The notes below the pieces were generated by a model. The model made no database searches and was not told the origin of the DNA. It saw nothing but the letters and a program-made list of their open reading frames with translations. Below, piece by piece: positions 12,255 to 48,387 of a stretch of DNA of 64,000 nucleotides. The position numbers and the translations under genes are program-made. Each line of letters begins with the position of its first letter. The first letter of the stretch is position 1. The stretch comes from an uncultured Candidatus Binatia bacterium (lineage in GTDB: Bacteria; Desulfobacterota; Binatia; UBA9968; JAJDTQ01), in contig OZ244070.1 of assembly GCA_965215605.1 (NCBI GenBank), forward strand, positions 1,824,001-1,888,000, given 5' to 3'.

Positions 12255-12282
12255 TGGCCGGTACTCCCGAAAGGAGCTCAAC

Positions 12283-13287
12283 ATGTCAGACCCCACCCGT
12301 TTCCGCGCCATGGTCGTCAGCGAGAACGAGGACAAGACCTTTTCCCGCGTCATCACCGAACGGTCGGCGGACGACCTGCCGGAAGGCGACCTGCTGGTCT
12401 CGGTGGCTTATTCCTCTCTCAACTACAAGGACGCGCTGTCGGCCTCCGGCAACAAGGGCGTCACCCGCAACTTCCCCCACACCCCCGGCATCGACGCCGC
12501 GGGCACGGTGGCGGAGAGCGGGGTGGGCGGTTTCGCCAAGGGCGACGAGGTGGTGCTGACCGGCTTCGACCTGGGCGCCAACACCGACGGCGGCTTTGCC
12601 GAGTACGTGCGGGTGCCGGCCGCCTGGGCGGTGAAGCGCCCGGACGGCTTGAGCCTCAAGGAGAGCATGGTCTACGGCACCGCGGGATTCACCGCGGCGC
12701 TCTCGGTGCTGCGGCTCCAGGAGGGCGGAGTCACGCCGGAATCGGGCGACGTGCTGGTGACCGGCGCCACCGGCGGTGTCGGCTGCCTGGCCGTGGCCAT
12801 CCTGGCCCAGGCCGGCTACCGGGTGGTGGCGTCCACCGGCAAGGAGTCGGAGAAGGACTTCCTCACGGGTCTGGGCGCGGCCGACGTGATCTCGCGGGAG
12901 GACGCGGACGATCAGTCCGGACGGCCCCTGCTCAGGGGCCTGTGGGCCGGCGTCGTGGATACCGTCGGCGGCAACATCCTCGCCACCGCCATCAAGGCCT
13001 CCAAGTACGGCGGTGTGGTCACCTGCTGCGGCAACGTCGCCTCGGTGGAGCTCAACACCACGGTCTTCCCCTTCATCCTGCGGGACGTGCGCCTCGTCGG
13101 CGTGGCCACGCCGGACTGCCCCGCGGACATCCGCGCTACCCTGTGGCAGAAAATGGCCATGGAGTGGAAGCTGCCCAACCTGGACGCCGTCACCATCGAC
13201 TGCTCGCTCGGCGAGCTTGACGGCCACATAGAGAGCATCCTCAAGGGCGGGATCCGTGGCCGCGTGGTGGTGGACCTGTCGCGCTGA
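12283..13287 (+). CDS. YhdH/AcuI-family NADPH oxidoreductase (MDR superfamily)
   Basis: YSSLNYKDAL, PGIDAAG, GTAGFTA, VTGATGGVG, VFPFILR. Confidence 0.9.
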   Translation: MSDPTRFRAMVVSENEDKTFSRVITERSADDLPEGDLLVSVAYSSLNYKDALSASGNKGVTRNFPHTPGIDAAGTVAESGVGGFAKGDEVVLTGFDLGANTDGGFAEYVRVPAAWAVKRPDGLSLKESMVYGTAGFTAALSVLRLQEGGVTPESGDVLVTGATGGVGCLAVAILAQAGYRVVASTGKESEKDFLTGLGAADVISREDADDQSGRPLLRGLWAGVVDTVGGNILATAIKASKYGGVVTCCGNVASVELNTTVFPFILRDVRLVGVATPDCPADIRATLWQKMAMEWKLPNLDAVTIDCSLGELDGHIESILKGGIRGRVVVDLSR

Positions 13288-13321
13288 CGGACACTCACGC
13301 ACCGTTTCCCGGGAGATCGCC

Positions 13322-15391: not shown

Positions 15392-15413
15392 ATCTCGCCG
15401 AGGGGAGAACGCC

Positions 15414-17093: not shown

Positions 17094-17114
17094 CGCAAGC
17101 GGGACACGGCGGCT

Positions 17115-17143
17115 TTGACCTTCTCCTGCAGGGGTCCTAAACT
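17115..17143 (+). promoter_or_regulatory. sigma70-like promoter
   Basis: TTGACC(17115)-17-TAAACT(17138). Confidence 0.55.
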
Positions 17144-17149
17144 AGCGCC

Positions 17150-17209
17150 AATACCCCTTGCGGTTTCGACCGCAGGGTGCGGGGCCTCTTCGGAGGCCCT
17201 TGCTTTTTC
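17150..17209 (+). ncRNA. candidate ~60-nt two-hairpin small RNA/leader ending in an intrinsic terminator
   Basis: CCTTGCGGT-TTCG-ACCGCAGGG, then GGGGCCTC-TTCG-GAGGCCCT followed by TGCTTTTT, starting about 7 nt after the -10 box. Confidence 0.4.
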
Positions 17210-17220
17210 AGCAGGCCTGC

Positions 17221-17295
17221 ATGCGCACCATCGTCTATGCCAGTTGCCGGATCCAATTCCCGGCACAAACATCCGCAGACCCTCCCCGGTGGTAG
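17221..17295 (+). pseudogene. remnant of a probable NYN (PIN-like) nuclease gene with a near-total internal deletion
   Basis: MRTIVY is joined directly to QLPDPIPGTNIR (shifted frame) and PPRW*. From memory these match the N- and C-termini of one NYN-domain family. Confidence 0.5.
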
Positions 17296-17353
17296 CTGGT
17301 GGCGCAGTTCAGTGAGGAGATGGTGAGGGGCGCCCCGAGACCCCCCGGAAACT

Positions 17354-18517
17354 TCACCCATCCAGCTTGAACAGCCGCTCGGCGTTGCCGTGGCGGATGA
17401 GCTCCTTGGTCTCTTCCGAGATGTTCTTGTTGACGGACAGGAGCTGGACGTCCCGGAACTTCATGCTGCCGCCGGGATCGTCGTGGGGGTAGTCGGTGGC
17501 GAAGAGGAAGCGCTCGGGGCCGAGGAACTCGATGGCTTCGGGCAGGGCGGCTTCTTCGGTTTCGATGGTGAAGTAGAAGTTGTTGCGGAAGTAGTGGCTC
17601 GCCGGTTTCTTGTTCTTCTCCAGGAAGACCTCGGCGCCGTAGAAGGCCCGGTGGCGGCGCAGCTTGGCCTTGACCCCGCGCATGACGTCCGCATCGGCGT
17701 CCCCGTCGTAGTCCACCGGAGGGCCGTTGAAAGCGGCGTCCAGCCGTTCCACCAGCGGCTTGATGAAGCCTGTGCCGGCCTCGGTGAAGATGAACTGGAG
17801 GCCGGGGAAGTCGTCCAGCAGGCCGCTGGTCACCAGCGACACCAGGCTCACCTGTCCCTCCTGCGGCGCGAACAGGTAGAGGCCGTCCTTTTGGAAGTTG
17901 GGCAGGTTGCTGATGCGGTGGCCGTGCTGGATGTTGTGGAGGAAGATGGGCATTTCCATCTCCTCGGCCCGGGCGAAGAAGGGCCACAGCTCCTTGTGGC
18001 TGCCGAGGCTATCGCCGTAGGGGTGATCCTGCACCGGGTAGACCTTGTCCAGCACCACCGCGCGGAACCCCTCCTTCTGCGCCCATTCCATCTCGCGGAT
18101 GGCCGCGGGCACGTCCTGGAGCTGGACGATGGGCACGCCGATGAGGCAGTCGTGCCGCTCCATCATGCGCAGGTTGGACAGGTTGTAGGAGCGGGCGATG
18201 GCCGACGCCAGCGCCGGCTCGATCATGTAGGTCCACCAGCCGGAGAACTGCGGCAGCACGAACTGACGGTCCACCCCAAGCACGGGCATCTCGTCGAGCC
18301 GCACCTGCAGGTCCACCAGCCCTTTCATGCTGGCGCCGGAACCCGGCGGTCCCAGCGGCGTCACGCCCGGCACCTCGGGCGGTCCGCCCGGAAAGTCGAT
18401 GTCGGCGAGCAGTCCGTCGTCGCTGTACCGTGGGATCGGCGCCTTGTCCCGGAACTCCTCGGGCATGTCGTCGAAGGCGTCGTTGGGCATGATATGGGTG
18501 TCGCAGTCGATGATCAC
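17354..18517 (-). CDS. amidohydrolase_2 (LigW/ACMSD-like) family protein
   Basis: IIDCDTH, SYN, PIFLH, FTEAG, FATDYPH, NAERLF. Confidence 0.88.
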   Translation of the reverse strand: MIIDCDTHIMPNDAFDDMPEEFRDKAPIPRYSDDGLLADIDFPGGPPEVPGVTPLGPPGSGASMKGLVDLQVRLDEMPVLGVDRQFVLPQFSGWWTYMIEPALASAIARSYNLSNLRMMERHDCLIGVPIVQLQDVPAAIREMEWAQKEGFRAVVLDKVYPVQDHPYGDSLGSHKELWPFFARAEEMEMPIFLHNIQHGHRISNLPNFQKDGLYLFAPQEGQVSLVSLVTSGLLDDFPGLQFIFTEAGTGFIKPLVERLDAAFNGPPVDYDGDADADVMRGVKAKLRRHRAFYGAEVFLEKNKKPASHYFRNNFYFTIETEEAALPEAIEFLGPERFLFATDYPHDDPGGSMKFRDVQLLSVNKNISEETKELIRHGNAERLFKLDG

Positions 18518-32508: not shown

Positions 32509-32543
32509 AAAAGGTCGTGAGAACCAATCTCACGGCCTTTTTT
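32509..32543 (+). terminator. intrinsic terminator
   Basis: AAAAGGTCGTGAGA-accaa-TCTCACGGCCTTTTTT. Confidence 0.7.
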
Positions 32544-32610
32544 GCTCGGGAACGCCTTGCAGTCCAATAAGAATACCCAGCTTACATCCGGCCGGTCGAG
32601 GATCTTGTAC

Positions 32611-34140
32611 ATGAAGCGGGCTGCCTTGGGACTGTTGCTTATCGTCTTGTTGGCGGGCGCGACCTGCTACTGGCTGACGTTCATCCGGGTCACGAACGGA
32701 GGGTTGGCCTTCGAGAACAAGCTGCTGATTCCCGAGCAGCTATTCGGCACCGTCCTGGACGGACGCCGGCAGTTTCACCTGACCGTTGACGAGGGGACAC
32801 GGGAGTTCCTGCCGGGCAAGCAAACGCCGACGGCCGGCGTCAACGGCCCGTTTCTGGGGCCGACGCTGCGACTGCGTCAGGGCGAGGACGTCGATCTGAT
32901 CGTCCGGAACGACCTGGACGAGATGACCACCATGCACTGGCACGGAGCGCACGTTCCCGCCCGCATGGACGGCACGCCACACCAGAAGATCCAGCCCGGG
33001 ACATCGTGGACCGCCAGCTTCCAGGTCCATCAACAGGCCGCTCCGTTGTGGTACCACCCGCATCCGCACGGCGCCACGGGGCGGCATGTCTATCAGGGCG
33101 TCGCTGGCTTCATGTGGATCGACGACGAGAACAGCGAGGCGCTGGATCTGCCCAAGACCTACGGCGTTGACGACATTCCAATCGTGATCCAGGATCGGCT
33201 GTTCGGCGACGACGGTGCGTTTCGCTTTGCCATCAACCAGGGTGCCGTTTACGGCGACACCATGCTGGTCAACGGCACCTGGAGTCCGTTTGTCCAGGTC
33301 GAGTCGCGGCGAATCCGATTCAGACTGTTGAACGGCTCGAATGCGCGGATCTACTACATCGGCTTTGACGACAACCGTGTTTTTCACCAGATCGCCACGG
33401 ACGGCGGCTTCCTTGAGAGACCCCTCCGAACCGACCGCGTGGTCCTCGCTCCTGGCGAGCGGGCCGAGATCCTGGTGGACTTCAGTGATGGCGCCGAGGC
33501 GGTGTTGAAGAGCTACCCGGAAGCCGGGTTGCTGGAGACGATGGAGGCATTCTTCGGGGGGATCGGCAACGGGCACCTGGAGTTGTTGAAGATCGTTCCC
33601 CGGCCGGCAAAGCGCGCATCCCACGCTCTGCCGGAACGCCTCAACACCATTACCCGCATCGATGCCTCACAAGCCGCGAAAACCCGACCGATGGTTTTGG
33701 GAGGGCCGATACAGGGCGCACAGGGTGGACGGTTTGCTGGAGGCGGACCGGGTCCGGGGCCGCCGATCAACGGCAAGATCATGGACATGGGGAGAATTGA
33801 TGAGGTGGTGCGGCTGGGAGACATAGAGATCTGGGAAGTGGACAATCGCGGGGGGCAGGCTCACCCTTTCCACATCCACTTGGTGCAGTTCCAGATTCTC
33901 GACCGCAACGGCCAACCGCCCAGCGGCGCCGAGCTCGGCTGGAAGGACACGGTCCTGGTGCCTGCCGGTGACATCGTCCGGATCATCATGCCCTTCGATC
34001 GATATGCCGATCCGGAAGTGCCGTACATGTACCACTGCCACATCATGGAACATGAAGATAACGGGATGATGGGACAGTTCCTGGTAGTGGAAGACCCGGA
34101 GCGACTCGCCAGCCGTACGAGAAATCTGCAGCACCGGTAG
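32611..34140 (+). CDS. multicopper oxidase (CueO/CumA-like)
   Basis: HWHG, WYHPH, HPFHIH, HCHIMEHED.GMM copper ligands; N-terminal hydrophobic segment. Confidence 0.92.
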   Translation: MKRAALGLLLIVLLAGATCYWLTFIRVTNGGLAFENKLLIPEQLFGTVLDGRRQFHLTVDEGTREFLPGKQTPTAGVNGPFLGPTLRLRQGEDVDLIVRNDLDEMTTMHWHGAHVPARMDGTPHQKIQPGTSWTASFQVHQQAAPLWYHPHPHGATGRHVYQGVAGFMWIDDENSEALDLPKTYGVDDIPIVIQDRLFGDDGAFRFAINQGAVYGDTMLVNGTWSPFVQVESRRIRFRLLNGSNARIYYIGFDDNRVFHQIATDGGFLERPLRTDRVVLAPGERAEILVDFSDGAEAVLKSYPEAGLLETMEAFFGGIGNGHLELLKIVPRPAKRASHALPERLNTITRIDASQAAKTRPMVLGGPIQGAQGGRFAGGGPGPGPPINGKIMDMGRIDEVVRLGDIEIWEVDNRGGQAHPFHIHLVQFQILDRNGQPPSGAELGWKDTVLVPAGDIVRIIMPFDRYADPEVPYMYHCHIMEHEDNGMMGQFLVVEDPERLASRTRNLQHR

Positions 34141-34220: not shown

Positions 34221-35432
34221 ATGCAGTACCCCAGGTTGCTCGCTGACCGGCTGATCCGGCTCGCGGCACACTTTCCGGCGGTGGTGGTCACCGGTGCGCG
34301 TCAGGCGGGCAAGACGACCCTGATGCGCGCCACCTTCCCGGATCATCACTACGTTTCCCTGGACCTCCCCACCACGGCCGACCAGGCCGAACGCAATCCG
34401 GACCTGTTCCTGCACCACCATCGGGCGCCGGTGCTCATCGACGAGGTGCAGTACGCGCCCGGCCTGTTCCGCCACCTGAAAGCGGCGATCGATGACCGTC
34501 GTCCTGACATGGGCCGCTACATCCTCACCGGGAGCCAGAACTTCACGCTCATGAAAGGGATCTCGGACAGTCTTGCGGGCCGTTGCGGGATCGTGGAGTT
34601 GGAAAACCTGGCGCTGCACGAGATCGACGCCGTGACTCCTCCCGGCGACGACGCGGCCAGCCTCGCCGGCCTGATGGCCCGGGGGCAGTTCCCCGAGTTG
34701 TGGCGCGAGCCGGAGCTGCGGGCGGCGGATTTCTTCGCTTCGTACCTCGCCACCTACCTCGAGCGCGACGTGCGCCAGATCCTGAACGTGGCGAGTCTCC
34801 GGGATTTCGAGCGCTTCGTTCGCTTGCTGGCGGCTCGCTCGGCGGCCATGCTCAACAAGAGCGACGTCGCACGGGACACCGGCGTGGCGGTGAAGACCAT
34901 CGGCGAGTGGGTGAGCGTGCTCCAGGCGTCCGGCCAGATCGTCCTGCTGGAACCCTGGCACGTGAGCTTCGGCAAACGAGTGGTGAAGACTCCGAAGGTC
35001 TATTTCCGCGACAGCGGCCTGCTCTGCTTTCTGCTGGGGCTTGACGCCTCCACGCTGCTCACCTCGCCAGCCCTGGGCGCCGTATGGGAGACGTTCGTGT
35101 TCGCGGAGATGCGCAAGCTGAACGAGGCCGAATCCGCGCCTGTCAACTTCTGGTACTACCGCGACCAACGCGGCCAGGAAGTGGACTTCGTGCGCGACGC
35201 CGGCGGCGTCCTCGGCTTCATGGAGTGCAAGTGGAGCGAGCGGCCCACCCTGCGTGACGCGCGCGGGTTGCTGCGGGTGAGCGCCGGGCTGGCCGCGTCC
35301 AACAGTCCCTGGCGCCCCGGCCCGCACTACGTCATCGGCCGGCCCGTGTCCAGCCATTCCCTCGGTGAGGGCGTGACCGCCGTGTCGCTGCGCGACCTCC
35401 CCGCCATCGTCTCCGGGAATCCGCTCGCCTGA
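34221..35432 (+). CDS. AAA_14 ATPase with DUF4143 domain
   Basis: [44 protein letters not shown]...ECK. Confidence 0.9.
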
Positions 35433-35541
35433 CCGGTTGCGCTGGACATCGTTGCCTCTCCGCGCCCAAAGACGTAGTAATGGCACAGCCTGGGACGTCG
35501 GCTTCAGGCGGGATGAACGCCGCCAACGAGGAGAAACGCAC

Positions 35542-36522
35542 ATGGAATACCGCCAGTTCGCAACCACCGACTGCAAGGTGTCGCCCATAGGGCTCGGCTG
35601 TCTGAGCATGTCCGGGATGTATGGCGCCGGCGACGACACGGAGTCCATCGCCACGCTGCACCGGGCCTTCGAGCTCGGCATCAACTTCCTGGACACCTCC
35701 GCCAGCTACGGCAACGGCCACAACCACGAGCTCATCGGCAAGGCCATCAAGGGCCGGCGCGACCAGGTGGTGATCCACTCCAAGTCCGGCAGCCCGCGGT
35801 CCGCCGCCGGCACCGGCCTCGACGGCGGCAGCTCGCCCGAGTACCTCGTCCAGACCTGCGAGGAGAGCCTCCAGCGACTGGGCACCGACTACCTGGACAT
35901 GTACTGCATGTCCCGCATCGACCCCGCCGTCCCGGTGGAGGAATCGGTAGGCGGTATGGCGCGCTTGGTGGAGCAAGGCAAGACCCGCTACATTGGACTC
36001 TCCGAAGCCAGCGCCGATTCCATCCGCCGCGCCCAAAAGGTCCACCCCATCGTCTCGCTCCAGATCGAATACTCACTCTGGTCCCGGGACCCCGAGCAGG
36101 GCAACATCGAGGCCTGCCGCGAGTTCGGCATGGGCCTCATGGCCTACTCGCCCTTGGGCCGCGGCTTCTTCGCCGGCGCCGTCCGCAGTCTCGACCAGCT
36201 CGCCGAACGCGACGGCCGCCGCAACCAGCCCCGCCTCCAACCGGGCAACATCGAGCGCAACCTGGAGTTACTGGCCCAAGTGGACGAGGTCGCCAGGGAC
36301 AAGGGCATCACCACCACCCAGCTCGCGCTCGCATGGCTCATGGCCCAAGGTCCGGACATCATCCCCATCCCCAGCAGCAAGAGCCGCAAGCACCTGGAGG
36401 AGAACGTCAAGGCTGTCGAGGTGGAGTTGACGGACGAGGACCTGCGCCGGCTCGACGGCATCCTTCCCTACGGCGCCGCCGCCGGGAACCGGACGCGGGA
36501 CATGAAGCGGGTGAACGTGTAG
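35542..36522 (+). CDS. aldo/keto reductase
   Basis: IGLGC, DT...[28 protein letters not shown]. Confidence 0.92.
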
Positions 36523-36643
36523 TACCTCGCGAAGTCGCCATTTTGGGGGAGCGCCGGTTGCCTCCACCCATTTCGCTAGCAATATCAATAGGTACGGTGC
36601 GGTGGCCACCGTGCCTCCCCACGCTTTGGAGGGGGCAGCTCTG

Positions 36644-37666
36644 TCAGTCCCGTTCAAGTTGGTTCGTCGACGGCTGTGCACGCACATTGGGCAGACGATC
36701 ATTGATCGCGATTGCCAGATCGCACCCGAAGTTCCGCGTGTTGTCCGTGACTACCGTCCGGGCTCCCGTCGCCTCCACATAGGCAAGGGTTTCTTCGAAA
36801 TCAGCGTGGTTCGACAGCGCTACGCGGTATGCCCGATCTGAAAAGATCTTCAATGGATGGTCGTGGTCTACCATGTAAGCGCTACAGGTGACCATTGTCC
36901 CCTCGACTCGCTCGTTCTTGAAACCGTCGCCCTTTGAGTAGAGCCGCACATATGAACGCTGTTGCACGGCGTGCCTGCCGTCGTCGGAATCAAGCGGAAC
37001 CAGTACTCCGGGCGCGAGGCCATGCTGCTGGTATACCTGCACGCGCCGGATTAGCCGCTCGGTGGCCAGAAGGGGAACGCCCACGTTGTCTCCAAGCACC
37101 TGCAAGGTGCGTTCGATGGTTCCGGGGTGGGCGTGGATATGGACTGAACCGTGCCGTAGTCTCGCACAGACTATTTCAGACAGGCAGGCTTCCGCTTGGT
37201 CCTGCGTGTAACCTCGGACGCTACGGGGGTTACCATAAGTACTGTCAACGACCAGTTCATCGACTTGGATCACGTTGTCGAGGGGCCATCCGAAGTCGCC
37301 GGAATATCCAATCCGATGACCGTCTGGCAACTCCAGGGCAACCTGACACGATCCAAGCATGTGGTTCGATGGGACTAGATGTAACGTAAAGCCTTTTCCC
37401 AGATCATGCGCGACACCGCGTTCGACCGGGTGGAAGTTCTCTCGGTACTCCAGATCAGCATTGTACTCGGCAATGAGCAAAGCATAGGTCTCAGGGCTTA
37501 GCAGGAACTCCTGCAGCCCCTTGCTCTTGTTGAACGCACCCATGTGGTCTTCATGGACGTGTGTCTGGACACGGAAGCGGCAGCCATTAGCGAAACCGTC
37601 GCACACGACCATCTCGCCGAGGCAGACAGCGCCACTCTCCCGCACGTCAACCATCGGGTCAGGCAT
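36644..37666 (-). CDS. MBL-fold, beta-CASP-like nuclease
   Basis: THVHEDH, NHMLGS, YSGDF, VDSTYG, LSNHADF; the ATG at 37666 overlaps the upstream stop by 8 nt. Confidence 0.8.
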   Translation of the reverse strand: MPDPMVDVRESGAVCLGEMVVCDGFANGCRFRVQTHVHEDHMGAFNKSKGLQEFLLSPETYALLIAEYNADLEYRENFHPVERGVAHDLGKGFTLHLVPSNHMLGSCQVALELPDGHRIGYSGDFGWPLDNVIQVDELVVDSTYGNPRSVRGYTQDQAEACLSEIVCARLRHGSVHIHAHPGTIERTLQVLGDNVGVPLLATERLIRRVQVYQQHGLAPGVLVPLDSDDGRHAVQQRSYVRLYSKGDGFKNERVEGTMVTCSAYMVDHDHPLKIFSDRAYRVALSNHADFEETLAYVEATGARTVVTDNTRNFGCDLAIAINDRLPNVRAQPSTNQLERD

Positions 37667-38369
37667 TTGCGACACACTCCGCAACAAAGGCGCGCAGCAG
37701 AGATTCAATGTCTTGCTTGCCGACATGCTTCATTGACACGCCAAAACCCTCGTCCCCGACCAAGGTGAAAATTTTGGGGCCTAGGCGTCCTGACGCCCCC
37801 TTTAGCCCGATTTTCTCCACGCCCGCCGCCAACATTGCATCCCTTTCTCTTTGTGGAAGCTCCGCAAGAGCTCGCTGTGCACCGCGATCAAGTATGGTGC
37901 CGATGAACACGTAACGCCGGTCGATTGCTTGCCGCATGTTGATGACTTCCTTCACGCACTCGCTGACCGGCCGTCGTGAGCGTTCGTGCAGTTGCACGAC
38001 CTGTCGGACCTCTTTGCTATTCAGGCCGTTGGCGAGTATCGCTTCGGCGACCGTGCGTTGGTCGTCAGCTTTCGGAAGTCGGGTGAGTTCGGTAGCACAA
38101 GAGAACCCCACGGCATCTCGAGGGCTGCCCCAACTTATCACGTGCCGGAGGTCGTCCGGGAGGTCAAGAATACGCAGGAAACGTCTAACGCCCGTCGCGT
38201 CGATCCAGGTCTCCTTTGCACATTCGTCAAGTGAACTGCCGGCATCGCATGCCCGCTGCAGCAATGCACCGACTTCGACCGGCGAAAGTAGACGCTCCTT
38301 TCTATGTTTCCCGTAGCCGACCGACATCCGGAGACGTCCAAGTTCTAGAGGGCTCAGACCTGGGAGCAT
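37659..38369 (-). CDS. ParB-like HTH/C-terminal domain protein lacking the CTPase domain
   Basis: LSPVEVG...G.S..E.A.....V.R.L.ILDLP...A..L..L...Q...A..I...LN.KEV resembles the Spo0J HTH region; no GxRR motif. Confidence 0.55.
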   Translation of the reverse strand: MLPGLSPLELGRLRMSVGYGKHRKERLLSPVEVGALLQRACDAGSSLDECAKETWIDATGVRRFLRILDLPDDLRHVISWGSPRDAVGFSCATELTRLPKADDQRTVAEAILANGLNSKEVRQVVQLHERSRRPVSECVKEVINMRQAIDRRYVFIGTILDRGAQRALAELPQRERDAMLAAGVEKIGLKGASGRLGPKIFTLVGDEGFGVSMKHVGKQDIESLLRAFVAECVANA

Positions 38370-38383
38370 GATGGCTACTAATC

Positions 38384-39202
38384 TCAGAGTCCGCGGCCGG
38401 TCAGCGCCTCTTCGATGAGCATGACGGTCGCGTCTCCCTGGTTGGTGCCTTCTTCCCGGGCGACCTGCTGGATGGCACGATGCGTATCCTGTGTCACGGT
38501 AGCGACAACCTGGATGACCTTCGAGCCGGACTTCGCGCCCTCTATAACCTCTACGACAGACTTGTCGGGATTGTCTCTTCGATCCTCCTCCACCTTCTTG
38601 CGTTGGGCTCCTGACATCGATGCCATCTCCTGGGCCAAGACAAGGGCGTCGTCGGTGTTGACCGCGCCGTCGTCGTCCGTTGCCGAATCCTGCGCACGCA
38701 GTGCGGCATTGACATCAACTTGTCCTTCGTCGACCAAGTCCTTCAGTTGTTTCACCAGCCGGGGGTACTTTACGTAGTCCCGCACTTCCCGATGGGGCAG
38801 GCCTGTTGTCTTGACCACGTCCTGAACGCTTCCGTATATGTTGTAAAGGTAAAGGATTCCATCCTTGAGTTCTTTGCCCGACAGCTTGCGACGTATTAGG
38901 TTTTCGGTGATGGAGATTGTCTTGGCCTCAGCCTGCCCGACTTGGCTGTCAAGCACGGCGGCCGAGATGGTGTCTCGATTCAGCATCTTGTAAGCGAGGA
39001 AGCGCCGCTGACCTGTAAGGATCTCCCATTTCCCGGGCTGTTGTTTCGACTTGCAAACCACGATCGGTTGCAGTAGCCCTTGCGCTTCGATACTTGCGGC
39101 GAGATCCTCAACGCCGGCCCCCGGGTTCTCTGTCCGGACCTGTCCCAGACCAATTACCAAGTCGTCGAGGGGTATTTCGCGGTAATCGATGATTTTTGCC
39201 AT
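38384..39202 (-). CDS. ParB/RepB/Spo0J family protein
   Basis: LA.SI...GLLQPIVV, EILTGQRRFLA, ENL.R..LS; AGGAG RBS before the ATG at 39202. Confidence 0.88.
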   Translation of the reverse strand: MAKIIDYREIPLDDLVIGLGQVRTENPGAGVEDLAASIEAQGLLQPIVVCKSKQQPGKWEILTGQRRFLAYKMLNRDTISAAVLDSQVGQAEAKTISITENLIRRKLSGKELKDGILYLYNIYGSVQDVVKTTGLPHREVRDYVKYPRLVKQLKDLVDEGQVDVNAALRAQDSATDDDGAVNTDDALVLAQEMASMSGAQRKKVEEDRRDNPDKSVVEVIEGAKSGSKVIQVVATVTQDTHRAIQQVAREEGTNQGDATVMLIEEALTGRGL

Positions 39203-39206
39203 GGCT

Positions 39207-40619
39207 TTAGTCTCCTTCGGTTGCATTGGAAGAGGGCGAAAGGGTGCCCTCCGCAAGTTCTAAAATCTCCATGAGTTCGCGCTTGGTGAGTCGCCCGCGC
39301 ACCGTCCCCACAGATTCGATGACCTCGTCGAATAGGGCCTCCTTCCGGTCGAGCACTGTAGCTATGCGCTCTTCGACCGAGTCTCGGACCAGGAAACGGA
39401 TGACATGCAGCGGCCCTTCCCGTTCGAAGCGGTGCGCTCGGTAGACTGCCTGGAACTCGACTGCAGGATTCCACCAGCGGTCGAACAGGACGGCGTGGGT
39501 CGCCTCCCCGAGGTTCAGGCCGACGCCGCCGGCACGAAGGGAAATCAATAGTGCCCGCGGTGTTTGGCCTGTCCTGAACCGGTCGATAGAAATCTGTCTC
39601 TCGGCTGCCGGCATGGATCCGATCAGAAGGTCGTGGGGTATTCCGATCCGCTGGGAAATCTGCCGCAGGGTCTGGACGAACTGCGAAAACACAATCATCC
39701 TCGCCGATTGCCCAGCGCCTTCGCAGATGGCTGTGAGGGCCTCCAGTTTCGATGAAGCACCGCTCTCGACGTCGTAGTTGCAGATCACCTTTAGTCGCGT
39801 AATGAGACCGAGCATGGCGGCGTTGGAGTCTTCCTTTTCCCCGCCGATTTGTGCCGTTCTGGCCGCCCACAGATCGTCGTAGGCGATCCTTTGTGGCGAC
39901 GAGAGCTCGAGGTACAGATCCTGTACGATGACAGCCGGCAGTTCGGCCCGCACTTCACGTTTCCGCCGCCGCAGCATCATTGCCTCCAGCCTCTTGTTCA
40001 GCCGTGTTGCATCGGGATCCCGACGAATATCGGGGTCCAGGAAGGCGAGGATTGAGGCGACGTCTTCGCGGTCGTTTTCGAGCGGCGTCGCAGACAGTGC
40101 CCACGCACGTTTTCGCGGCAGCAGCCGGCAGGCGAGTGCCGTTGCGGAGTTCTTGTTCTTGATGCGTTGCGCTTCGTCCAGGATGACGAGATCGAACGTG
40201 CCTTTGGGAATCTGATCCAGTCCGTCTTGACGGATCTGTTCGTAAGAGGAGACGAGAACAGGGATCGGCAGCAGGTAGAATGCCTTCCGGCTGGCGGCCC
40301 CGCCCTGAAGCCGTCGCGTCGCCAGTGACGGTGCCCATGTAGTGAGTTCGGACATCCAGTTCAGCGTCAGCGAGGCAGGGGCCACGATCAAGGCTCGGTC
40401 GATCCCCTTTTGTCCATTGAGGAGAAGTGCAAGAGCGATTGCTGCCTGGACGGTTTTTCCCAATCCCATCTCGTCAGCGAGAAGGGCAGACGTGGACTGG
40501 TACAGGAATGCCACTCCCTCCCACTGGTACGTGTGAAGGGCGGCGGGGAGCATGAGTTGATCTTCGGCCGCGCTCCGGAGATCTTGCACGTCCAGCGTCA
40601 CTCGAAGACCCACACCCAC
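39207..40619 (-). CDS. minimal SNF2-family (SF2) ATPase/helicase
   Basis: YQ.EG, LADEMGLGKT, DEAQRIKN, SATPLEN, SSK, IVFSQF, AGGVGLNL, WWNPA...QA..RAHR. Alternative GTG start at 40601. Confidence 0.9.
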   Translation of the reverse strand: MGVGLRVTLDVQDLRSAAEDQLMLPAALHTYQWEGVAFLYQSTSALLADEMGLGKTVQAAIALALLLNGQKGIDRALIVAPASLTLNWMSELTTWAPSLATRRLQGGAASRKAFYLLPIPVLVSSYEQIRQDGLDQIPKGTFDLVILDEAQRIKNKNSATALACRLLPRKRAWALSATPLENDREDVASILAFLDPDIRRDPDATRLNKRLEAMMLRRRKREVRAELPAVIVQDLYLELSSPQRIAYDDLWAARTAQIGGEKEDSNAAMLGLITRLKVICNYDVESGASSKLEALTAICEGAGQSARMIVFSQFVQTLRQISQRIGIPHDLLIGSMPAAERQISIDRFRTGQTPRALLISLRAGGVGLNLGEATHAVLFDRWWNPAVEFQAVYRAHRFEREGPLHVIRFLVRDSVEERIATVLDRKEALFDEVIESVGTVRGRLTKRELMEILELAEGTLSPSSNATEGD

Positions 40620-40720
40620 ACGGCAGCTTCAGCGATATCTCGTTGGCATGTCTCGATAACCGCCCGCGAAATGTGCTGTGTCATCGAAGTTAGCCTGTGA
40701 CCAGCGAACTGCAAATACAT
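40598..40720 (-). CDS. possible 40-aa ORF bridging the DUF262 and SNF2 genes
   Basis: My translation is MYLQFAGHRLTSMTQHISRAVIETCQRDIAEAAVWVWVFE*; its stop forms a GTGA overlap with the alternative SNF2 start. Confidence 0.25.
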   Translation of the reverse strand: MYLQFAGHRLTSMTQHISRAVIETCQRDIAEAAVWVWVFE

Positions 40721-40736
40721 ATGACTTCATTGACCA

Positions 40737-42509
40737 TTAGCTCTCCTCGCGTCCGGAAAAGCACCACACCTGAGCGGCCGCCTTTGCGAGGTCCCTTGAG
40801 CGTTCGGCCACCGCCGTCGGAGTCCACTCGTCATGTATAGCTACATCGCGCGTCATTCCAAATGGGCTGGTCTCAAAAACGGCCTTCTTGGCGGCGAAGT
40901 TCGCGTTGAAACGGTGCCGTGCATGATTGCCGCTGTCGCCCAGCAATGTCAGATTCCCGATTCGAGCAACCCAGTCCCGGAGGTCGTATCCCACCGACGT
41001 GAAGCCGGTCCAACCGGACCAGTAGGTCTCCGACTGCGGCAAGATGTGTTCCACGGAACATCCTTCATAGTCGAATGCGCGGCCTTCACGTTCTTGCTTG
41101 CCGTTGATTCCGAACAACAGTCGTTTGGCTCGCCGGGAATCGGTCATCTGAACATCGAGGAGGCGAGAAATAAATCGTGTGTCGTCCATTATCATCAAGT
41201 CATCACATTCTTCGAGATCTGTTTTTATGTCGAGGTCAGCGACCTTGCTACTGGTCGCGATTCTCCTGGCACAATTGGCAAAACCCGGCTCTACTCTGGA
41301 TGGTTCGAATTTGGCCCCGCAGAAGGAGAGGCGCATCACGAAGGAAGAAAGGTCGCTGAGGCAGTGATGCGCGGCTTTGGCTACTGCTCTCCGGTACCGA
41401 TCTTCGGCTTCAATGAACTTCCGTAACAATGCAAACATTAGCGGTTGCACGACCTTATAACCACCCAATTCCTGAATGAACACAGGCAGATTACGTTTGT
41501 TTCGGGTGGTGCCGGACGCCGTGCAGAAGGCATTAAGCAGTTCCTTGCTTGGGTTTGTGGCAGTGATAGTCCGGAACAGTTCCACGGCAGCGGGACTAGC
41601 AAGCTCATGGACTAGCGCGTAAACGTGCTTGTCTCCATCCGGTCGTCGCCCAGGATTGCGGATCTTCGCCCGAGTATCGCGATAAAAGCGGGTCTTCTGA
41701 AGATAGCCGTACCGACATTGAAAGAAACAGCGGAAATACTCTTGGGATCGCGTAGTGCTTCGAGTAGTTGCGAGGACGCTTTCAAGCTGCTCGTGGACGG
41801 TGGCGCGCCGCTCTGAGTCGGCAGGATCTGTGAAGTACGAGTAAAGGTGGTTTCGAATTAGATCAACGTCATCCAGTCGCTTGCCTCGTCCATTGAGGGC
41901 TTCGAAAACGGCATTGGCGTCCTCTGTCTTGGGGACGTAGAGGACACCAATCTCTACCTTCTGCGTCAGGAAATCGAAAAACGTTTGGGTCTCACTCGGC
42001 CCCATTGCGCTGACGAACAGGGCCACTTCGTTCCAGGCGGAGGTCAATTTGCCGTTCGTCCCGATGTCGAGGCCACGGATAATCTGAGTAAACCGCGATC
42101 GGTCTTGGCGTGGCGGCTCGACGCGAGGCACATCCCGGGTCGTGTCGTCGAAGTTGGTGACCGCGTTCTCCGGGCGATCGAACAGTACGCGCAACGCGAG
42201 CATTTCACGGCCAGCGTCCGTGTCGCGGTTATTTGCGAACCGCCGGCCGAATGCAGCAAAGAGTAGGGAGAGGGTGATCATGCGCTGCTGACCGTCGTTG
42301 ATTTCCCAAACATCCTCACCCGCGACCAGCATAATGGACCCGAGGAAGTAACTTGCCCGATCTTCGTCCAGGGCTTCCTTGAGGTCGACCAACAACTCGG
42401 TGACCTGCTCTACGGTCCAGTCGTAATACCGCTGATGCCACGGCACTGTGAACCGTCCCTTGAGGAAGAGCTCGGACACGAGCAATGCCTCTGACGTGAT
42501 CTGGGTCAT
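40737..42509 (-). CDS. DUF262 + DUF1524 (HNH) protein, SspE/GmrSD-like
   Basis: VP..QR.Y.W, YFLGSI, DGQQR, FE.LN.RG..L..DL.RN; C-terminal VEHILPQ...IGNLTLL...N. Confidence 0.88.
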   Translation of the reverse strand: MTQITSEALLVSELFLKGRFTVPWHQRYYDWTVEQVTELLVDLKEALDEDRASYFLGSIMLVAGEDVWEINDGQQRMITLSLLFAAFGRRFANNRDTDAGREMLALRVLFDRPENAVTNFDDTTRDVPRVEPPRQDRSRFTQIIRGLDIGTNGKLTSAWNEVALFVSAMGPSETQTFFDFLTQKVEIGVLYVPKTEDANAVFEALNGRGKRLDDVDLIRNHLYSYFTDPADSERRATVHEQLESVLATTRSTTRSQEYFRCFFQCRYGYLQKTRFYRDTRAKIRNPGRRPDGDKHVYALVHELASPAAVELFRTITATNPSKELLNAFCTASGTTRNKRNLPVFIQELGGYKVVQPLMFALLRKFIEAEDRYRRAVAKAAHHCLSDLSSFVMRLSFCGAKFEPSRVEPGFANCARRIATSSKVADLDIKTDLEECDDLMIMDDTRFISRLLDVQMTDSRRAKRLLFGINGKQEREGRAFDYEGCSVEHILPQSETYWSGWTGFTSVGYDLRDWVARIGNLTLLGDSGNHARHRFNANFAAKKAVFETSPFGMTRDVAIHDEWTPTAVAERSRDLAKAAAQVWCFSGREES

Positions 42510-43678
42510 AAGGGATGTACGGATTTGAGAAGGGCGAGTCGACCGTTTTCGGTGATCTCGTCACGCCACCAAACGTCTTCGATGCACTCGATTTCCGCCG
42601 GGCTGATGAGGGTGTCGCCGACCGTTTTCTCTAGTGCAAAGAGTCGATCAAGAATGGTTCGGCGGACTGCTAGGGTGAATGGACCGAACACCTGGGAGCC
42701 GTCGGACCGGTTCCGAGGGTTACCGTCACGGCGCACGGGAAGTCGATTGCTGTCGTCCTCCCGCAAGGCGATGAGCCATTCGCGGAAGTCCGACAGGCTT
42801 TCCATCTTCTTGGCCTCCTCGTGCCCTGAATCGATCAGGCCCCGGAGACTGCGGTCTTTAGTGACCACCGTGCATGTCCAACAGCCGAATCGTGGGGAGG
42901 AACTGCCACATGACGGTGCGTCGTCTTGTGTCATTACCAGTGGACACTCGCCCCCTCCGGCTTGACGATAGAGAGTGATTAGCCGGCGATGGGTGCCGCC
43001 CCATGGTGGGCGGCGCTGCATCAATACCATCCAGACATCCTCATCGCTGAGGTCGGCAAGCGGGGAGAATATCCGACAGCCCTCCACAGAGTCGTGTTGA
43101 TTGCTTTTCCCGGCAGACACCTTGCGTCGGTCCATGCCTCGCTGCCGGTTTTGTGACTCGCTCCGGCGGCTACCGATTAGGAGAACGGCCCCCCCATGCT
43201 CTCTCACGATGTCTTGCAACAGACGGCTAGTCGGCCGAATTTTCATTCGGTCTGTGCACCACCGAAAATTCCTGGTGGGAGGTATGTATCCCCGCCCTAT
43301 CACACTCACCCAAAAGGTCTGATCGATGGCTGGTGTGGTGACCCGAATGTCCACAGGCATTTCTTGTGTTGTGGCGGCGGCCTCAATCACGTTGAGCGAT
43401 CCTCGGAGATGCCGAATGACGAGCGGCGACTCGACTAGAGTATCATTGCCGACGATGAAGATGGATCGCTGCCGTTGGTCTGTTGGTAGCCCGGCAACTG
43501 TTTCCCAAATCATCTGTAGGAGAAGGGTAGAGTCCTTCCCTCCAGAATAAGCAACAATCCAGGGATGGCCGTGCTTGCGACAGTACTCCCGTCGGAGGGT
43601 CTCTGCGATCTTCTTGAGCCGCGTAGGTAGACTCGTCAGGCTGTTACTGGTCGCCGTTGAACTCGTCGGCGCCTTCAT
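42506..43678 (-). CDS. dndC: DNA phosphorothioation sulfurtransferase DndC (PAPS-reductase fold)
   Basis: PW.VAYSGGKDST, DTLVESP, FWV..IGRGY.PP...FRWCT.RMKI.P, LY.QA..GECPLV, SCG...RFGCWTCTVV.KD.S, GPFT. Confidence 0.88.
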   Translation of the reverse strand: MKAPTSSTATSNSLTSLPTRLKKIAETLRREYCRKHGHPWIVAYSGGKDSTLLLQMIWETVAGLPTDQRQRSIFIVGNDTLVESPLVIRHLRGSLNVIEAAATTQEMPVDIRVTTPAIDQTFWVSVIGRGYIPPTRNFRWCTDRMKIRPTSRLLQDIVREHGGAVLLIGSRRSESQNRQRGMDRRKVSAGKSNQHDSVEGCRIFSPLADLSDEDVWMVLMQRRPPWGGTHRRLITLYRQAGGGECPLVMTQDDAPSCGSSSPRFGCWTCTVVTKDRSLRGLIDSGHEEAKKMESLSDFREWLIALREDDSNRLPVRRDGNPRNRSDGSQVFGPFTLAVRRTILDRLFALEKTVGDTLISPAEIECIEDVWWRDEITENGRLALLKSVHPL

Positions 43679-44820
43679 GTCGTGATGCTCCGAAGAGTTG
43701 ACACAGCGTCATTAACGCGTTGTCCAACGAAGTCGACCTCTACCTCTGTAGTATAGCGACCAACGCTGAATCGCACGGAGGAGAGTGCCAGCGTTTCGGT
43801 GACACCGAGTCCCTCCAGCACGTGTGATGGCTCAATCGACGCCGCCGTGCATGCGGAACCTGCCGAGATCGCAACATCGCCAAGAGCCAGCATCAGCGAC
43901 TCGGCCTCCACGCCGGGAAAGGCAATGTTCAAAATGCCTGGGACTCGCGCGGTACGGTTGCCGTTGACGACCGCCCCGCCAATCTCGTCCAACCAGCCAA
44001 GGAGGCGTCGGTCGATGGCTGCCACTCGTTCCGCGTCACTACTCTGACAGTCGTTTGTGAGCCGCGCCGCCGCTCCTAGACCAACAACCTGGTGGGTCGC
44101 CAACGTCCCAGCCCGCAGCCCAGCTTCTTGTCCGCCTCCATGGATCTGGGGGATGAGCAACGGCCGAACGGAGCGGCGCACAAATAGAGCACCCACACCT
44201 TTCGGGCCATATATCTTGTGGCCGCTCAATGACAGGAGGTCTACTCCCATGAGCGAGACATCGATCGGAAGTCGTGCGGCGCTCTGTACGGCGTCGACAT
44301 GAAACAGTGTGCCGTTTTTCCGTACCACGCGCGCTATGCTCGGGATATCAGTAACAGTCCCAACCTCATTGTTTACGTGCATAAGGGAGACTAACGCGGT
44401 GTCCGGTCGAAGATCCGCGCGGACGACATCCGGCGTGATCATGCCATCGGCGTCAGGTGTGAGGTAGGTCACCTCCACGCCCTGGCCAGAGAGCCAGTCT
44501 GCGGTATCGAGTACTGCCTTATGCTCTAGTGAGGAGACGAGGAGATGCCGACCGCGTACGCTAGGCGATAGCATTACTCCCTTGATGGCTAAATTGATCG
44601 CCTCTGTCGCACCGGAGGTCCAGAAGATTTCATCGGCGTCTGCGCCGATCAACCGCGAGACATGCCCGCGGGCCTCCTCAATAGCCTCTGAAGCTGCATG
44701 CCCAAAGCGGTGGGTGACGGAATGCGGGTTTCCGAAGACGCCGTCGGCTGTCAGAAACTTGGCCATCGTGTTCGCGACTTCCGGTGCAACAGGGGTCGTC
44801 GCAGCGTAGTCTAGGTACAC
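43675..44820 (-). CDS. dndA: cysteine desulfurase, DndA/IscS-like
   Basis: YLDYAATTP, GNP.S..H, TSGATE, HVDAVQ, SGHKIYGPKG (PLP Lys), SAGSAC (catalytic Cys). ATGA-coupled to dndC. Likely GTG start at 44820, though the ORF is open to 44997. Confidence 0.85.
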   Translation of the reverse strand: MYLDYAATTPVAPEVANTMAKFLTADGVFGNPHSVTHRFGHAASEAIEEARGHVSRLIGADADEIFWTSGATEAINLAIKGVMLSPSVRGRHLLVSSLEHKAVLDTADWLSGQGVEVTYLTPDADGMITPDVVRADLRPDTALVSLMHVNNEVGTVTDIPSIARVVRKNGTLFHVDAVQSAARLPIDVSLMGVDLLSLSGHKIYGPKGVGALFVRRSVRPLLIPQIHGGGQEAGLRAGTLATHQVVGLGAAARLTNDCQSSDAERVAAIDRRLLGWLDEIGGAVVNGNRTARVPGILNIAFPGVEAESLMLALGDVAISAGSACTAASIEPSHVLEGLGVTETLALSSVRFSVGRYTTEVEVDFVGQRVNDAVSTLRSITT

Positions 44821-45091
44821 GCCCTCTTCTGGATACGATACCCACTCGTCGCCTACGAAATACAGTTTTCGATGTGTTTTCAATAAGTTACTCGGTCTAT
44901 GAGGTGCCCCCGTGGCCCTTCCCAACCCTGATAGACTCGGCGGCTCTACCGTTCCAGTTCGTTTAGAATGACTCCACACATATGGATGCAACCGCAAAAC
45001 TGATGCCAGTGTCTGTTGGGTCGAGTCTCGCAGATTTCTTTCGGTGGTTCAACGGATTGTTCTCGACTACCGCTTTACCTGCACTCCCCAC

Positions 45092-45877
45092 TCAGGACAT
45101 CAACCTCCCGCCAGATACATTCAGCGCCTCCCCCGTGGTGTGCGACGAATCACTGGAGGCCAGGAAGAGGGCGGCGTTGGCCACTTCCTCGTGCAGTGCG
45201 TGTTTCCGCAGCGGCGTCTGCTTCAGGACGTTTTCCCACAACTCCTCGAAGGAGACGCCGAGGCCCTTGGCGCGGTCGTGGTACATTTCCCGCAGGTCGG
45301 CCTCGTCCATGCCGCCGGGGCAGATGACGTTGGCGCGGACGCCCGAGGGGCCGGCTTCCTTGGCGATGGTCTGGGTGAGTCCCAGCAGGCCCCACTTGGC
45401 GGCGCACAGGGAGCCGCGGAGCGCCATGCCCTCGCGGCCGGCGGTGCCGGAAATGCTGACGATGCTGCCGCGCTTCTGCCCCATCATGACCGGCAACGCG
45501 GCTTTGCAGCAGAGGAAGATGGCCTTGAGGTTGACGTTGAGGACCTGGTCCCATTCCTCCTCGGTGATCTCGTGCACCTCGACCATGGGGCCGCGGAAGC
45601 CGACGCTGTTGACCAGGATGTCCAGGCGTCCCCACTTGGCCGCCACGTCGGCAACCATTTTGTCGATCTGTGCCGCGTCGGTGGCGTCGGCCGTCATGGC
45701 TACGGCCTCGCCGCCCTTCTGTCCGATGGCTTGGACGACCCCGTCGAGCTCCGGCTCCATCTTCTCGAGATCCACCAGAACGATCTTTGCGCCCTCACCC
45801 GCGAAGGTGTGGGCGATGGCCTCGCCGATGCCGCGGGCGCCGCCGACGATGACTGCGATCTGATCTGAAAGTTTCAT
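45092..45877 (-). CDS. SDR family oxidoreductase
   Basis: GGARGIG, LDILVN, RANVICPG, TGE.LNVSGG; the YxxxK Tyr appears replaced (LCAAK). Confidence 0.88.
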   Translation of the reverse strand: MKLSDQIAVIVGGARGIGEAIAHTFAGEGAKIVLVDLEKMEPELDGVVQAIGQKGGEAVAMTADATDAAQIDKMVADVAAKWGRLDILVNSVGFRGPMVEVHEITEEEWDQVLNVNLKAIFLCCKAALPVMMGQKRGSIVSISGTAGREGMALRGSLCAAKWGLLGLTQTIAKEAGPSGVRANVICPGGMDEADLREMYHDRAKGLGVSFEELWENVLKQTPLRKHALHEEVANAALFLASSDSSHTTGEALNVSGGRLMS

Positions 45878-47378: not shown

Positions 47379-47603
47379 TCAGAGCACAGTCTGGCGGGCT
47401 ATTCTAGGGAGCCATTCCTCGTCTGGGACATCTCCGCGGAAGTGATCTTCCAGTAGTTCGACCTGGAATCCACGCTCGCGCAGTGCGGCGGCAAAAATCT
47501 TTCCCCCCAGGCATTGATCGAGGACGAAGGTGAGATTTTCAGGCGGCCGGCTCGAATTGCTCGCATCGGATAGCTTCTTCGATGTCTGACGGGGGGCGGG
47601 CAT
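47379..47603 (-). pseudogene. truncated VapC45-like PIN toxin
   Basis: FVLDQCLG...L...G..V....DHF..D.PDEEWL is followed by a stop before the expected LT.D motif; overlaps the DUF433 gene end. Start uncertain. Confidence 0.65.
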
Positions 47604-48246
47604 AATCGGCAGCGAGTTCTTCGACGGAGTCCCCGGCTGCGAAGCTTTGGTAGACGACTCTCGTTGCTATGTGGCTACCCACCAACACGGGACGACCAAA
47701 CGAAATACGCGGATCAACGACAACCCGGGGTTGTTGGACTTCGGCGGGCGGCAGGTCTCTCCGATTGAACAGATGGAGCTTCGTCGCAATACCGGTCATG
47801 TCACGTTCGATTCTCTTCAGGTATGTTCTAAGAAACTCGCGTATACCGATTTGCCCACCTTGAGTTATGTTGACCACCTCCCCGAGTTGGTCAACAAACA
47901 GGTCCATACCATCCGTTTCAAAGTCCTTTTCAGCCAACGGATGTGGCGACGGAAATTGCTGATACAGATAGTCCAGGCCACGCCTAATGCTTCTGAACGG
48001 TACGTTGCATTGTCGAATGGCTTCGAGGACGTGCGCCTCTGTCAGGTTCACGAAAGATAAAAGGCCACGCGATTCGTCGGCCAGCTTGATCACCGGTTCG
48101 GACCATTGCTCGCCTTGGGCGGTCGGATAGGTTCGCCCACGAACCCACGTCCGCAGCGTGCTCGGTGGTATGCGTAGGTAGTGGGCCGCCTCGCCTATTC
48201 CATAGGCCGGCAACTCACGTGGGTCTTTTCCCCCGTAAAGATTCAT
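47539..48246 (-). CDS. HTH + DUF433 antitoxin (VapB45-like)
   Basis: Y...EAA.YL.IP.STL..W, LSF.NL.E, HPLA, VDP.ISFGRP, AGDS.EELA.DY. Confidence 0.85.
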   Translation of the reverse strand: MNLYGGKDPRELPAYGIGEAAHYLRIPPSTLRTWVRGRTYPTAQGEQWSEPVIKLADESRGLLSFVNLTEAHVLEAIRQCNVPFRSIRRGLDYLYQQFPSPHPLAEKDFETDGMDLFVDQLGEVVNITQGGQIGIREFLRTYLKRIERDMTGIATKLHLFNRRDLPPAEVQQPRVVVDPRISFGRPVLVGSHIATRVVYQSFAAGDSVEELAADYARPPSDIEEAIRCEQFEPAA

Positions 48247-48387
48247 TATGTTCCGTTGACGCCACAACTTTCCGGGCGAGTCAAGGGGCAGCCCGCAATA
48301 AACCGGTTTCCTTGGGTTTCTCTTTCTTCAAGAACCCTTGCGTCAAGGCTGCTCGCGGAGACAGTGGACGTCACCGTCCAAACATCA

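Follow-up and report, generated by a model that had tools for sequence, protein, structure and literature searches.

Within the 64,000-nucleotide stretch of an uncultured Candidatus Binatia bacterium that is analysed here (GenBank assembly GCA_965215605.1, contig OZ244070.1, positions 1,824,001 to 1,888,000; hereafter the window), three genes on the minus strand at 40737-44820 encode a cysteine desulfurase, a short form of DndC and a DndI-like nuclease, and are joined end to end by two ATGA overlaps. This cassette is best read as a phosphorothioate (PT) restriction-modification system that is independent of DndD and DndE, a stripped-down variant of a known anti-virus system. It is conserved and horizontally spread, its genes are under purifying selection, and neither DndD nor DndE is matched in the window's genome. 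The place of the nuclease gene after dndC and the ATGA coupling of the two had been proposed in a preliminary description of the locus, and are borne out by the minus-strand sequence and its open reading frames (ORFs), from which the following components are defined.

43675-44820, minus strand: dndA, an IscS/DndA-type cysteine desulfurase of 381 amino acids (aa) (Pfam Aminotran_5 279.7 bits; PADLOC SspA 483 bits, DndA 473 bits)
43675-43678, minus strand: ATGA overlap, the dndA stop lying within the dndC' start (minus-strand sequence ...acgacATGAaggcg)
42506-43678, minus strand: dndC', a short DndC-family PP-loop sulfurtransferase of 390 aa (TIGR03183)
42506-42509, minus strand: ATGA overlap, the dndC' stop lying within the dndI' start (minus-strand sequence ...cccttATGAccc)
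40737-42509, minus strand: dndI', a DndI-like DUF262 (DGQQR) NTPase and DUF1524 HNH nuclease of 590 aa (Pfam GmrSD_N and GmrSD_C)

The dndA start is a GTG at 44820 with AGAGGG upstream; a longer ORF opening with TTG extends to 44997, and family matches start only at its residue 60. The NCBIfam IscS and DndA models match the protein, though below their cut-offs.

On sequence grounds, the 390-aa protein is a true DndC-family member with a lineage of its own, and the curated model and the tree placement both uphold the earlier assignment to DndC. It scores 336.5 bits against TIGR03183, the curated DndC model (cut-off 290.4), covering profile positions 6-341 of 447 only, and matches the PADLOC models of DndC at 373 bits (positions 9-375 of 481), BrxP at 37.7 bits and SspD at 24.3 bits. 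The motifs originally quoted for this protein and its nuclease neighbour (ECPLV, RFGCWTCTVV.KD, GPFT and DGQQR) all occur in the translations, with little or no variation among relatives; GECPLV, RFGCWTCTVVTKD and GPFT are found in the 390-aa protein, and C245, P246 and L247, R263-V271, K274 and D275, and G332, P333 and F334 vary little or not at all among 77 DndC' relatives. The PP-loop SGGKDS (S45-S50) and the cysteines C141, C245, C257, C266 and C269, which include a CxxC dyad, are invariant in the 77 sequences and align with those of canonical DndC. Ten canonical DndC proteins adjoining DndD and DndE, taken for comparison, carry a further 73-114 C-terminal residues and two inserts that are absent from DndC' in the alignment, and DndC' has clade-specific residues of its own (IDQT, IPPTRN and an extra SS ahead of PRFGCW). 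In a tree built from 20 of the 77 short sequences (every fourth), the 10 canonical proteins and 4 others, the DndI-linked DndC' proteins form a single clade (support 100/99) and canonical DndC a clade separate from the short forms (support 99/99), the sister of the DndI-linked clade being a pair of short DndC proteins that are paired with DndD-like genes. The top 120 database relatives of DndC' are 359-399 aa long. The nearest folds of its structural model are adenosine phosphosulfate (APS) reductase, TtuA, NcsA and LarE, and PDB searches by phmmer, profile and Foldseek returned no DndC or TdpC chain.

DndB, DndD and DndE are not matched in the window's own genome (4.06 Mb, 97% complete), which holds a single DndC. 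Among 40 genomes carrying the cassette, 36 are without a DndD- or DndE-type match; DndD scores above its cut-off in two and DndE in two, and both of the DndD/DndE-positive genomes hold a second, canonical DndC beside DndD. Weaker DndD matches occur in 19 of the 40 carriers, and because the same search is also positive in 10 of 14 control genomes, they are mostly other ATPases resembling structural maintenance of chromosomes (SMC) proteins. The suggestion that the cassette operates without DndD and DndE therefore stands as far as the absence of their genes is concerned. Two further loci (L084 in genome G022 and L085 in G003) show another short DndC, of 377-415 aa and without the C-terminal extension, beside a DndD-like and DndE-like pair; these pairs score under the curated cut-offs, and their DndC proteins are the tree sister noted above.

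A search for related loci with the short DndC found 538 relatives in species-representative genomes, of which the best 80 were kept (L002-L081); two of these, L002 and L003, share one isolate label, are nearly identical to the window and are not independent. The wider family is large, with 6050 protein clusters at E <=1e-30 for DndC' relatives, a count that includes canonical DndC. The best 80 loci lie in metagenome-assembled genomes labelled as Binatia, Acidobacteriota orders, Alpha- and Gammaproteobacteria, Chloroflexota, Gemmatimonadota-type orders, Nitrospirales, Nitrospinota, Latescibacterota, Thermodesulfobacteriota, Bacteroidota/Rhodothermales and Spirochaetia. In 75 of the 80, a DndI-like gene starts within 700 nt of the DndC hit, directly after DndC', which agrees with the initial remark that the nuclease occupies the slot of dndD; among the five loci without it, the sequence of L050 stops 250 nt past dndC. 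DndA is directly upstream of dndC' in 64 of the 80. With start codons picked by rule as those nearest to the window's aligned start, the gap between dndC' and dndI' is -4 at 49 of 74 measurable junctions and at most 36 nt at 72 of them, and that between dndA and dndC' is -4 at 34 of 63; the coupling of dndC' to dndI' is beyond chance. DndC' ORFs are intact in 80/80 loci, and the ratio of nonsynonymous to synonymous substitution rates (dN/dS) is 0.07-0.15, or about 0.1, for dndA, dndC' and dndI' (pairs with dS <=1 in all three genes). Since 75 of 80 loci keep the order, the -4 overlap recurs, dN/dS is about 0.1 and 36 of 40 genomes lack a DndD- or DndE-type match, the arrangement is selected and not a random scar. 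This is what the preliminary description had favoured from the overlap, and the same conservation contradicts its other proposal, an accidental replacement of dndDE by a type IV restriction gene. In a sample of 301 genomes of the window's own phylum, a strong DndI' match occurs in the window's genome only (863 bits; next 104), which indicates only that the distribution is patchy.

The 590-aa product of dndI' contains the DGQQR motif and matches both GmrSD domains (GmrSD_N 89.8 bits, cut-off 33.2; GmrSD_C 64.7 bits, cut-off 23), and N71-R76 (NDGQQR), QR.YDW, H488, N519 and N535 are invariant in 63 relatives. Its PADLOC matches are to HEC-06 models (227, 218 and 196 bits), to 'Orf5' over its full length (158 bits) and to SspE over residues 20-88 only, the N-terminal DGQQR stretch (41.6 bits). 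Orf5 is presumably the former name of dndI. Searched against the PDB, a profile of 63 orthologues finds the DndI of Salmonella Cerro 87 (9JFL) at E 1.6e-29 (106 bits) and SspE at E 3.2e-17 (65 bits), and the AlphaFold model of DndI' (predicted local distance difference test, pLDDT, 90.1) matches DndI with template modelling (TM) scores of 0.65/0.65, SspE with 0.46/0.36 and BrxU with 0.31. DndI is the nearest solved relative of DndI' by both profile and fold, and the initial label of a 'Dnd/Ssp hybrid', which looked to SspE for the nuclease, is not sustained. Experiments have shown DndI to act as a PT-stimulated ATPase and nickase, which harms cells that lack PT and defends together with IscS-DndBCDE (PMC11662687). 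Among viral contigs, 27 pattern matches included no DndI' relative with the query used.

Co-folding of DndC with the DUF262 protein, which had been put forward as a check on their partnership, gave a pass: the scores of DndC' with DndI' were 0.75, 0.75 and 0.78, and that of the best of three controls 0.00, against a mark reached in a benchmark by 116 of 157 solved complexes and 2 of 215 mismatched pairs, counts that hold only roughly here given the custom alignments used (A1 and A2). The runs share at least 96% of their contacts with partner pLDDT of at least 83, and because the PDB searches gave no DndC-like chain, memory of a solved complex is an unlikely source of the pass. The model supports binding of DndC' to DndI'. 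The predicted interface comprises residues 115-120, 148-160, 318-322 and the C-terminal helix 360-389 of DndC', and residues 124-170, 243-250, 305-328 and 365-373 of DndI', away from the HNH motif; within it lie P116, D119 and Q120, clade-specific invariant residues of DndC' that differ in canonical DndC. Pairwise identities of the two proteins correlate over 63 loci (Mantel r 0.79; 0 of 999 permutations as high), as expected if both genes travel together.

As a description of this operon the idea of a minimal trio falls short, the operon continuing four genes further (36644-40619), beyond the part first described. The minus strand from 36.6 to 44.8 kb thus holds seven consecutive genes, of which the cassette at 40737-44820 is the first three and the following are the other four.

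39207-40619, minus strand: SNF2-family helicase core, 470 aa, with a GTG start 117 nt past dndI' (Pfam SNF2-rel_dom 153.6 bits, Helicase_C 68.2 bits)
38384-39202, minus strand: ParB-family protein, 272 aa (Pfam ParB_N 50 bits; TIGR00180 62.8 bits, cut-off 58.45; both scored on a longer ORF of 290 aa at 38384-39256)
37659-38369, minus strand: protein resembling ParB helix-turn-helix (HTH) domains, ParB-HTH, 236 aa (Pfam HTH_ParB 25.9 bits, cut-off 22.6)
36644-37663, minus strand: candidate nuclease of metallo-beta-lactamase (MBL) fold, beta-CASP-like, 339 aa (weak TIGR04122 match)

The MBL protein scores 48 bits against TIGR04122, a ligase-associated exonuclease model, far under the cut-off; its residues H35, H37, D39 and H40 (HxHxDH) are invariant in 35 sequences, and its start overlaps the ParB-HTH stop. 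At 24 of 40 related loci the dndI' and SNF2 genes overlap or abut, 38 of the 80 dndC' loci carry SNF2, ParB-HTH and MBL genes downstream in the same orientation, and in 70 of 80 metagenome loci a conserved ParB-HTH gene adjoins that of MBL. This downstream block is optional, since 19 carrier genomes whose loci are without MBL have it nowhere else (0/19 at E <=1e-10, with 3 of 3 positive controls matching). In 26 of the 80 loci there is a DndB-family gene (Pfam PF14072), as a rule preceded by a GIY-YIG gene of 110 aa. These loci (L012, L015, L018, L046, L052 and others) represent a second architecture: next after dndA-dndC'-dndI' come the GIY-YIG gene (~110 aa) and the DndB-family gene (~426 aa), and this pair stands where the SNF2-ParB-MBL block would be. 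One locus (L058:10673-12427, minus strand) has a second GmrSD-like gene, 40% identical to dndI' and convergent, just downstream of its MBL gene.

The block was also approached from its MBL gene, for which a search of metagenome contigs gave 138 relatives, 80 of them being kept (L090-L169). The full block of four genes is present in 47 of these 80, and among the 31 full-block loci with at least 4 kb of flank, DndC or DndA is matched in 27, sspBCD in 1 and a small phosphoadenosine phosphosulfate (PAPS) reductase in 1, so that 29 have sulfur-writer genes of some kind. A DndI-like gene occurs in only 3 of the 80. PADLOC and Pfam scans of the neighbours in 16 MBL loci placed the block beside canonical dndB-C-D-E(-A) (L095, L099, L105, L117, L137, L140, L147 and L167), sspB-C-D (L145), small PAPS reductases (L151 and L164) and other short DndC forms (L108 and L123); it follows that the block accompanies several kinds of PT writer. 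Two loci (L125 and L126) have MBL relatives of 52-53% identity without ParB or SNF2 despite available flank, so that the nuclease also occurs outside the block. By these associations the block would be a PT-dependent restriction or accessory module; no description of an SNF2-ParB-ParB-HTH-MBL block was found in the PT literature searched.

From the observed gene anatomy, family membership, conservation, absence of DndD and DndE, and purifying selection, a working scheme can be proposed for the cassette. DndA and DndC' probably write a PT-type mark without DndD or DndE, and DndI', made in step with DndC' and predicted to touch it, probably reads the mark and nicks DNA that lacks it. In this scheme DndA would draw sulfur from cysteine, and DndC', a PP-loop ATP pyrophosphatase with Fe-S cysteines, would insert it in the DNA backbone. 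The translationally coupled DndI' would sense the sulfur mark through its ParB-like DGQQR NTPase domain and nick unmarked DNA with its HNH domain. The C-terminal helix of DndC' is predicted to dock at the junction of the N-terminal and linker domains of DndI', and since the two proteins would bind, writer and reader would be made, and would probably act, as a unit. SNF2, ParB, ParB-HTH and MBL would form an optional second module shared by several PT writers, most likely a translocase-nuclease restriction arm. The PT nature of the mark, its sensing by DndI' and the targeting of DNA are the conditional parts of this scheme.

Several findings weigh against it. It is membership of the DndC family that would make the mark PT, and the C-terminal extension and two inserts missing from DndC' mean that its activity could differ from that of canonical DndC. 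DndI' is only ~18% identical to DndI, the Tyr25 with which DndI senses PT (9JFL) pairs in the HMMER alignment with a His25 that is itself at least 90% conserved, and thus nearly invariant, among DndI' proteins, and the top PADLOC match of DndI' is HEC-06 (227 bits), a standalone defence protein without a known PT link. The co-folding result is a model score and not a measurement, and the predicted interface is less conserved than the rest of either protein (0.556 vs 0.735 in DndC'; 0.465 vs 0.57 in DndI'); higher conservation would be expected, so that this comparison lends the contact no support. DndI' is missing from 4 of the 40 carrier genomes and is split in loci L026, L042, L054 and L079; across these loci and genomes G008, G019, G020 and G037 its gene is split, truncated or absent while DndC' is intact. 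The survival of DndC' without the nuclease implies that DndC' does not strictly depend on it, and in ordinary restriction-modification pairs, too, it is commonly the restriction half that decays.

A tentative extension of the scheme is that DndI' is also a DNA-handling subunit of the writer, its ParB-like NTPase positioning DndC' in the scanning role of DndD and DndE, sensing the mark and gating its own HNH domain. If this were true, the two-protein holoenzyme of writer and reader would correspond, for modification of the backbone, to the type I or type IIG restriction-modification enzymes.

In the opposite direction, DndC' might find and modify its sites alone, as is reported for TdpC, with DndI' serving as a restriction enzyme only; the gene overlap would then concern stoichiometry and co-regulation, and the contact would have no functional role. 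This is somewhat unlikely. The intact DndC' ORFs at all 80 loci fit it, as does the pattern of orphan modification enzymes left where DndI' is missing (4/40 genomes) or split (four loci), and predicted interface residues show no special conservation; the tdpC gene alone is also stated to suffice for PT synthesis (PMC12914056). The co-folding score of 0.75 vs 0.00 for the controls speaks against it, however, and so do P116, D119 and Q120, whose clade-specific invariance falls within the predicted interface.

It is improbable that the DUF262/DUF1524 protein is instead a type IV enzyme of the GmrSD/HEC-06 kind, directed at modified phage DNA without reading PT and carried as an embedded passenger in the manner of BrxU in BREX and HEC-06 in Hma; DndA and DndC' would then give protection from a different nuclease, for example the SNF2/MBL module. 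HEC-06 models are indeed its three best PADLOC matches, the PT-sensing tyrosine of DndI is not conserved, and HEC-06, which is GmrSD-like, defends alone and often sits within modification systems (bioRxiv 10.1101/2024.01.29.577857). A passenger of this kind is nevertheless hard to reconcile with its company: all 38 strong DndI' places in the 40 carrier genomes adjoin a DndC' place (coordinates compared by eye) and no orphan copy of the nuclease was seen in them, and the own-phylum sample yields a strong match in the window's genome only. The 19 cassette genomes without an MBL gene leave DndI' as their sole restriction candidate, the co-fold with DndC' passes, and DndI is the nearest solved structure. 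A substrate other than PT-DNA (a base in DNA, or RNA) or a decaying dnd remnant is very improbable, for while the nearest DndC' folds include tRNA thiolases (TtuA and NcsA), LarE and APS reductase and the canonical C-terminal region is missing, DndC' passes the curated DndC model and groups with DndC proteins, all its neighbours are DNA enzymes, and a decayed operon is rejected by the dN/dS of ~0.1, the 80 intact ORFs and the invariant catalytic motifs. Writing by DndA and DndC' and reading by DndI' remains the preferred account.

The cassette and block lie in an island that differs from its surroundings. GC content is 0.53-0.59 over 37-45 kb vs 0.63-0.67 in the flanks, a dip that fits acquired DNA. 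Neither an integrase nor a tRNA gene was seen close to the island, and the window as a whole has no tRNA genes; a scan of 36200-45400 returned 2 promoter-like and 5 terminator-like sites, not above shuffled sequences. The immediate neighbours are ordinary metabolic genes, namely a short-chain dehydrogenase/reductase (45092-45877), an aldo-keto reductase (35437-36522) and a multicopper oxidase (32542-34140); upstream of the island is an HTH_66 and DUF433 protein (47539-48267, minus strand) and downstream an AAA_14/DUF4143 ATPase (34221-35432, plus strand). L002 and L003 are two near-identical versions of the island under one isolate label (locus 8000-17500; window ~36600-45700), identical at 99.2-100% from ~230 nt inside dndI' to the MBL gene and at only 91-97% in dndA and dndC'; this step in identity suggests a recombination breakpoint near the dndC'/dndI' junction.

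The literature searched on DndC with GmrSD, SNF2/ParB or DUF262 gave no description of the cassette, though supplements may list such loci. A DUF262 gene in some dndC neighbourhoods is listed among untested candidates (PMC12914056). In sponge-associated Thaumarchaeota, 'dndA, B, C-like' genes have been reported with DUF262/DUF1524 in the dndB-like one (PMC6790972), and PT genes of a sponge microbiome have been called 'not functionally complete' (PMC5099237); both studies may have glimpsed the cassette. Of the PT surveys, one anchors on DndD/DndE (PMC10853773), and the other asks for a neighbouring P-loop NTPase and takes adjacent dndC and dndD as the definition of a system (PMC12914056). With such methods the cassette would go uncounted. 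Site choice by PT writers, and the modification of only some of the available sites, are open questions in the field; in current models the DndD/DndE pair forms the core of the machinery (PMC10853773). The cassette keeps a conserved DndC under purifying selection without that pair, and its three genes make up a system for testing directly whether a scanning ATPase is needed. Should the predicted contact prove real, the cassette would be the first case of a PT writer physically joined to its reader. The linked SNF2-ParB-ParB-HTH-MBL block may be a new restriction module that depends on PT.

The cassette can be set beside known systems, beginning with the more distant. BREX type 4, with BrxP, and canonical DndBCDE-DndFGH likewise combine a writer of the PAPS-reductase family with a restriction arm of several genes that includes an SF2/SNF2-type ATPase; the BrxP match of the cassette is weak (37.7 bits), and BrxC, PglZ, BrxL and DndFGH are absent from it. 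HEC-06, BrxU and GmrSD share with DndI' the architecture of two domains with DGQQR and an EH..P nuclease motif. HEC-06 acts alone, embedded in methylation systems (bioRxiv 10.1101/2024.01.29.577857), whereas in the genomes searched DndI' invariably adjoins DndC', its predicted binding partner; BrxU is unlike DndI' in fold (TM 0.31). SspABCD-SspE resembles the cassette in its PAPS-reductase-type writer and cysteine desulfurase and in a PT-sensing DUF262/DUF1524 nickase, SspE, but the cassette has neither SspB nor SspC, its writer scores as DndC (373 vs 24 bits for SspD), and SspE matches DndI' over the N-terminal DGQQR stretch only (TM 0.46/0.36). TdpAB consists of a hexameric translocase and a nuclease, restriction partners unlike those of the cassette. 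TdpABC does resemble it in writing PT without DndD or DndE, a single DndC-like protein being said to suffice (An et al. 2025, cited in PMC12914056). The closest known relative is the IscS-DndBCDE-DndI system of Salmonella enterica Cerro 87 (PMC11662687; 9JFL). The cassette differs from it in having no DndB, DndD or DndE, in a DndC that is ~100 residues shorter at the C-terminus, in a nuclease that is ~18% identical to DndI with His25 for the PT-sensing Tyr25, and in a nuclease gene that is translationally coupled to dndC and not co-transcribed with dndFGH. The two systems nonetheless share their central components: a cysteine desulfurase, DndC and a DUF262 (DGQQR)/DUF1524 HNH protein of ~590-600 aa.

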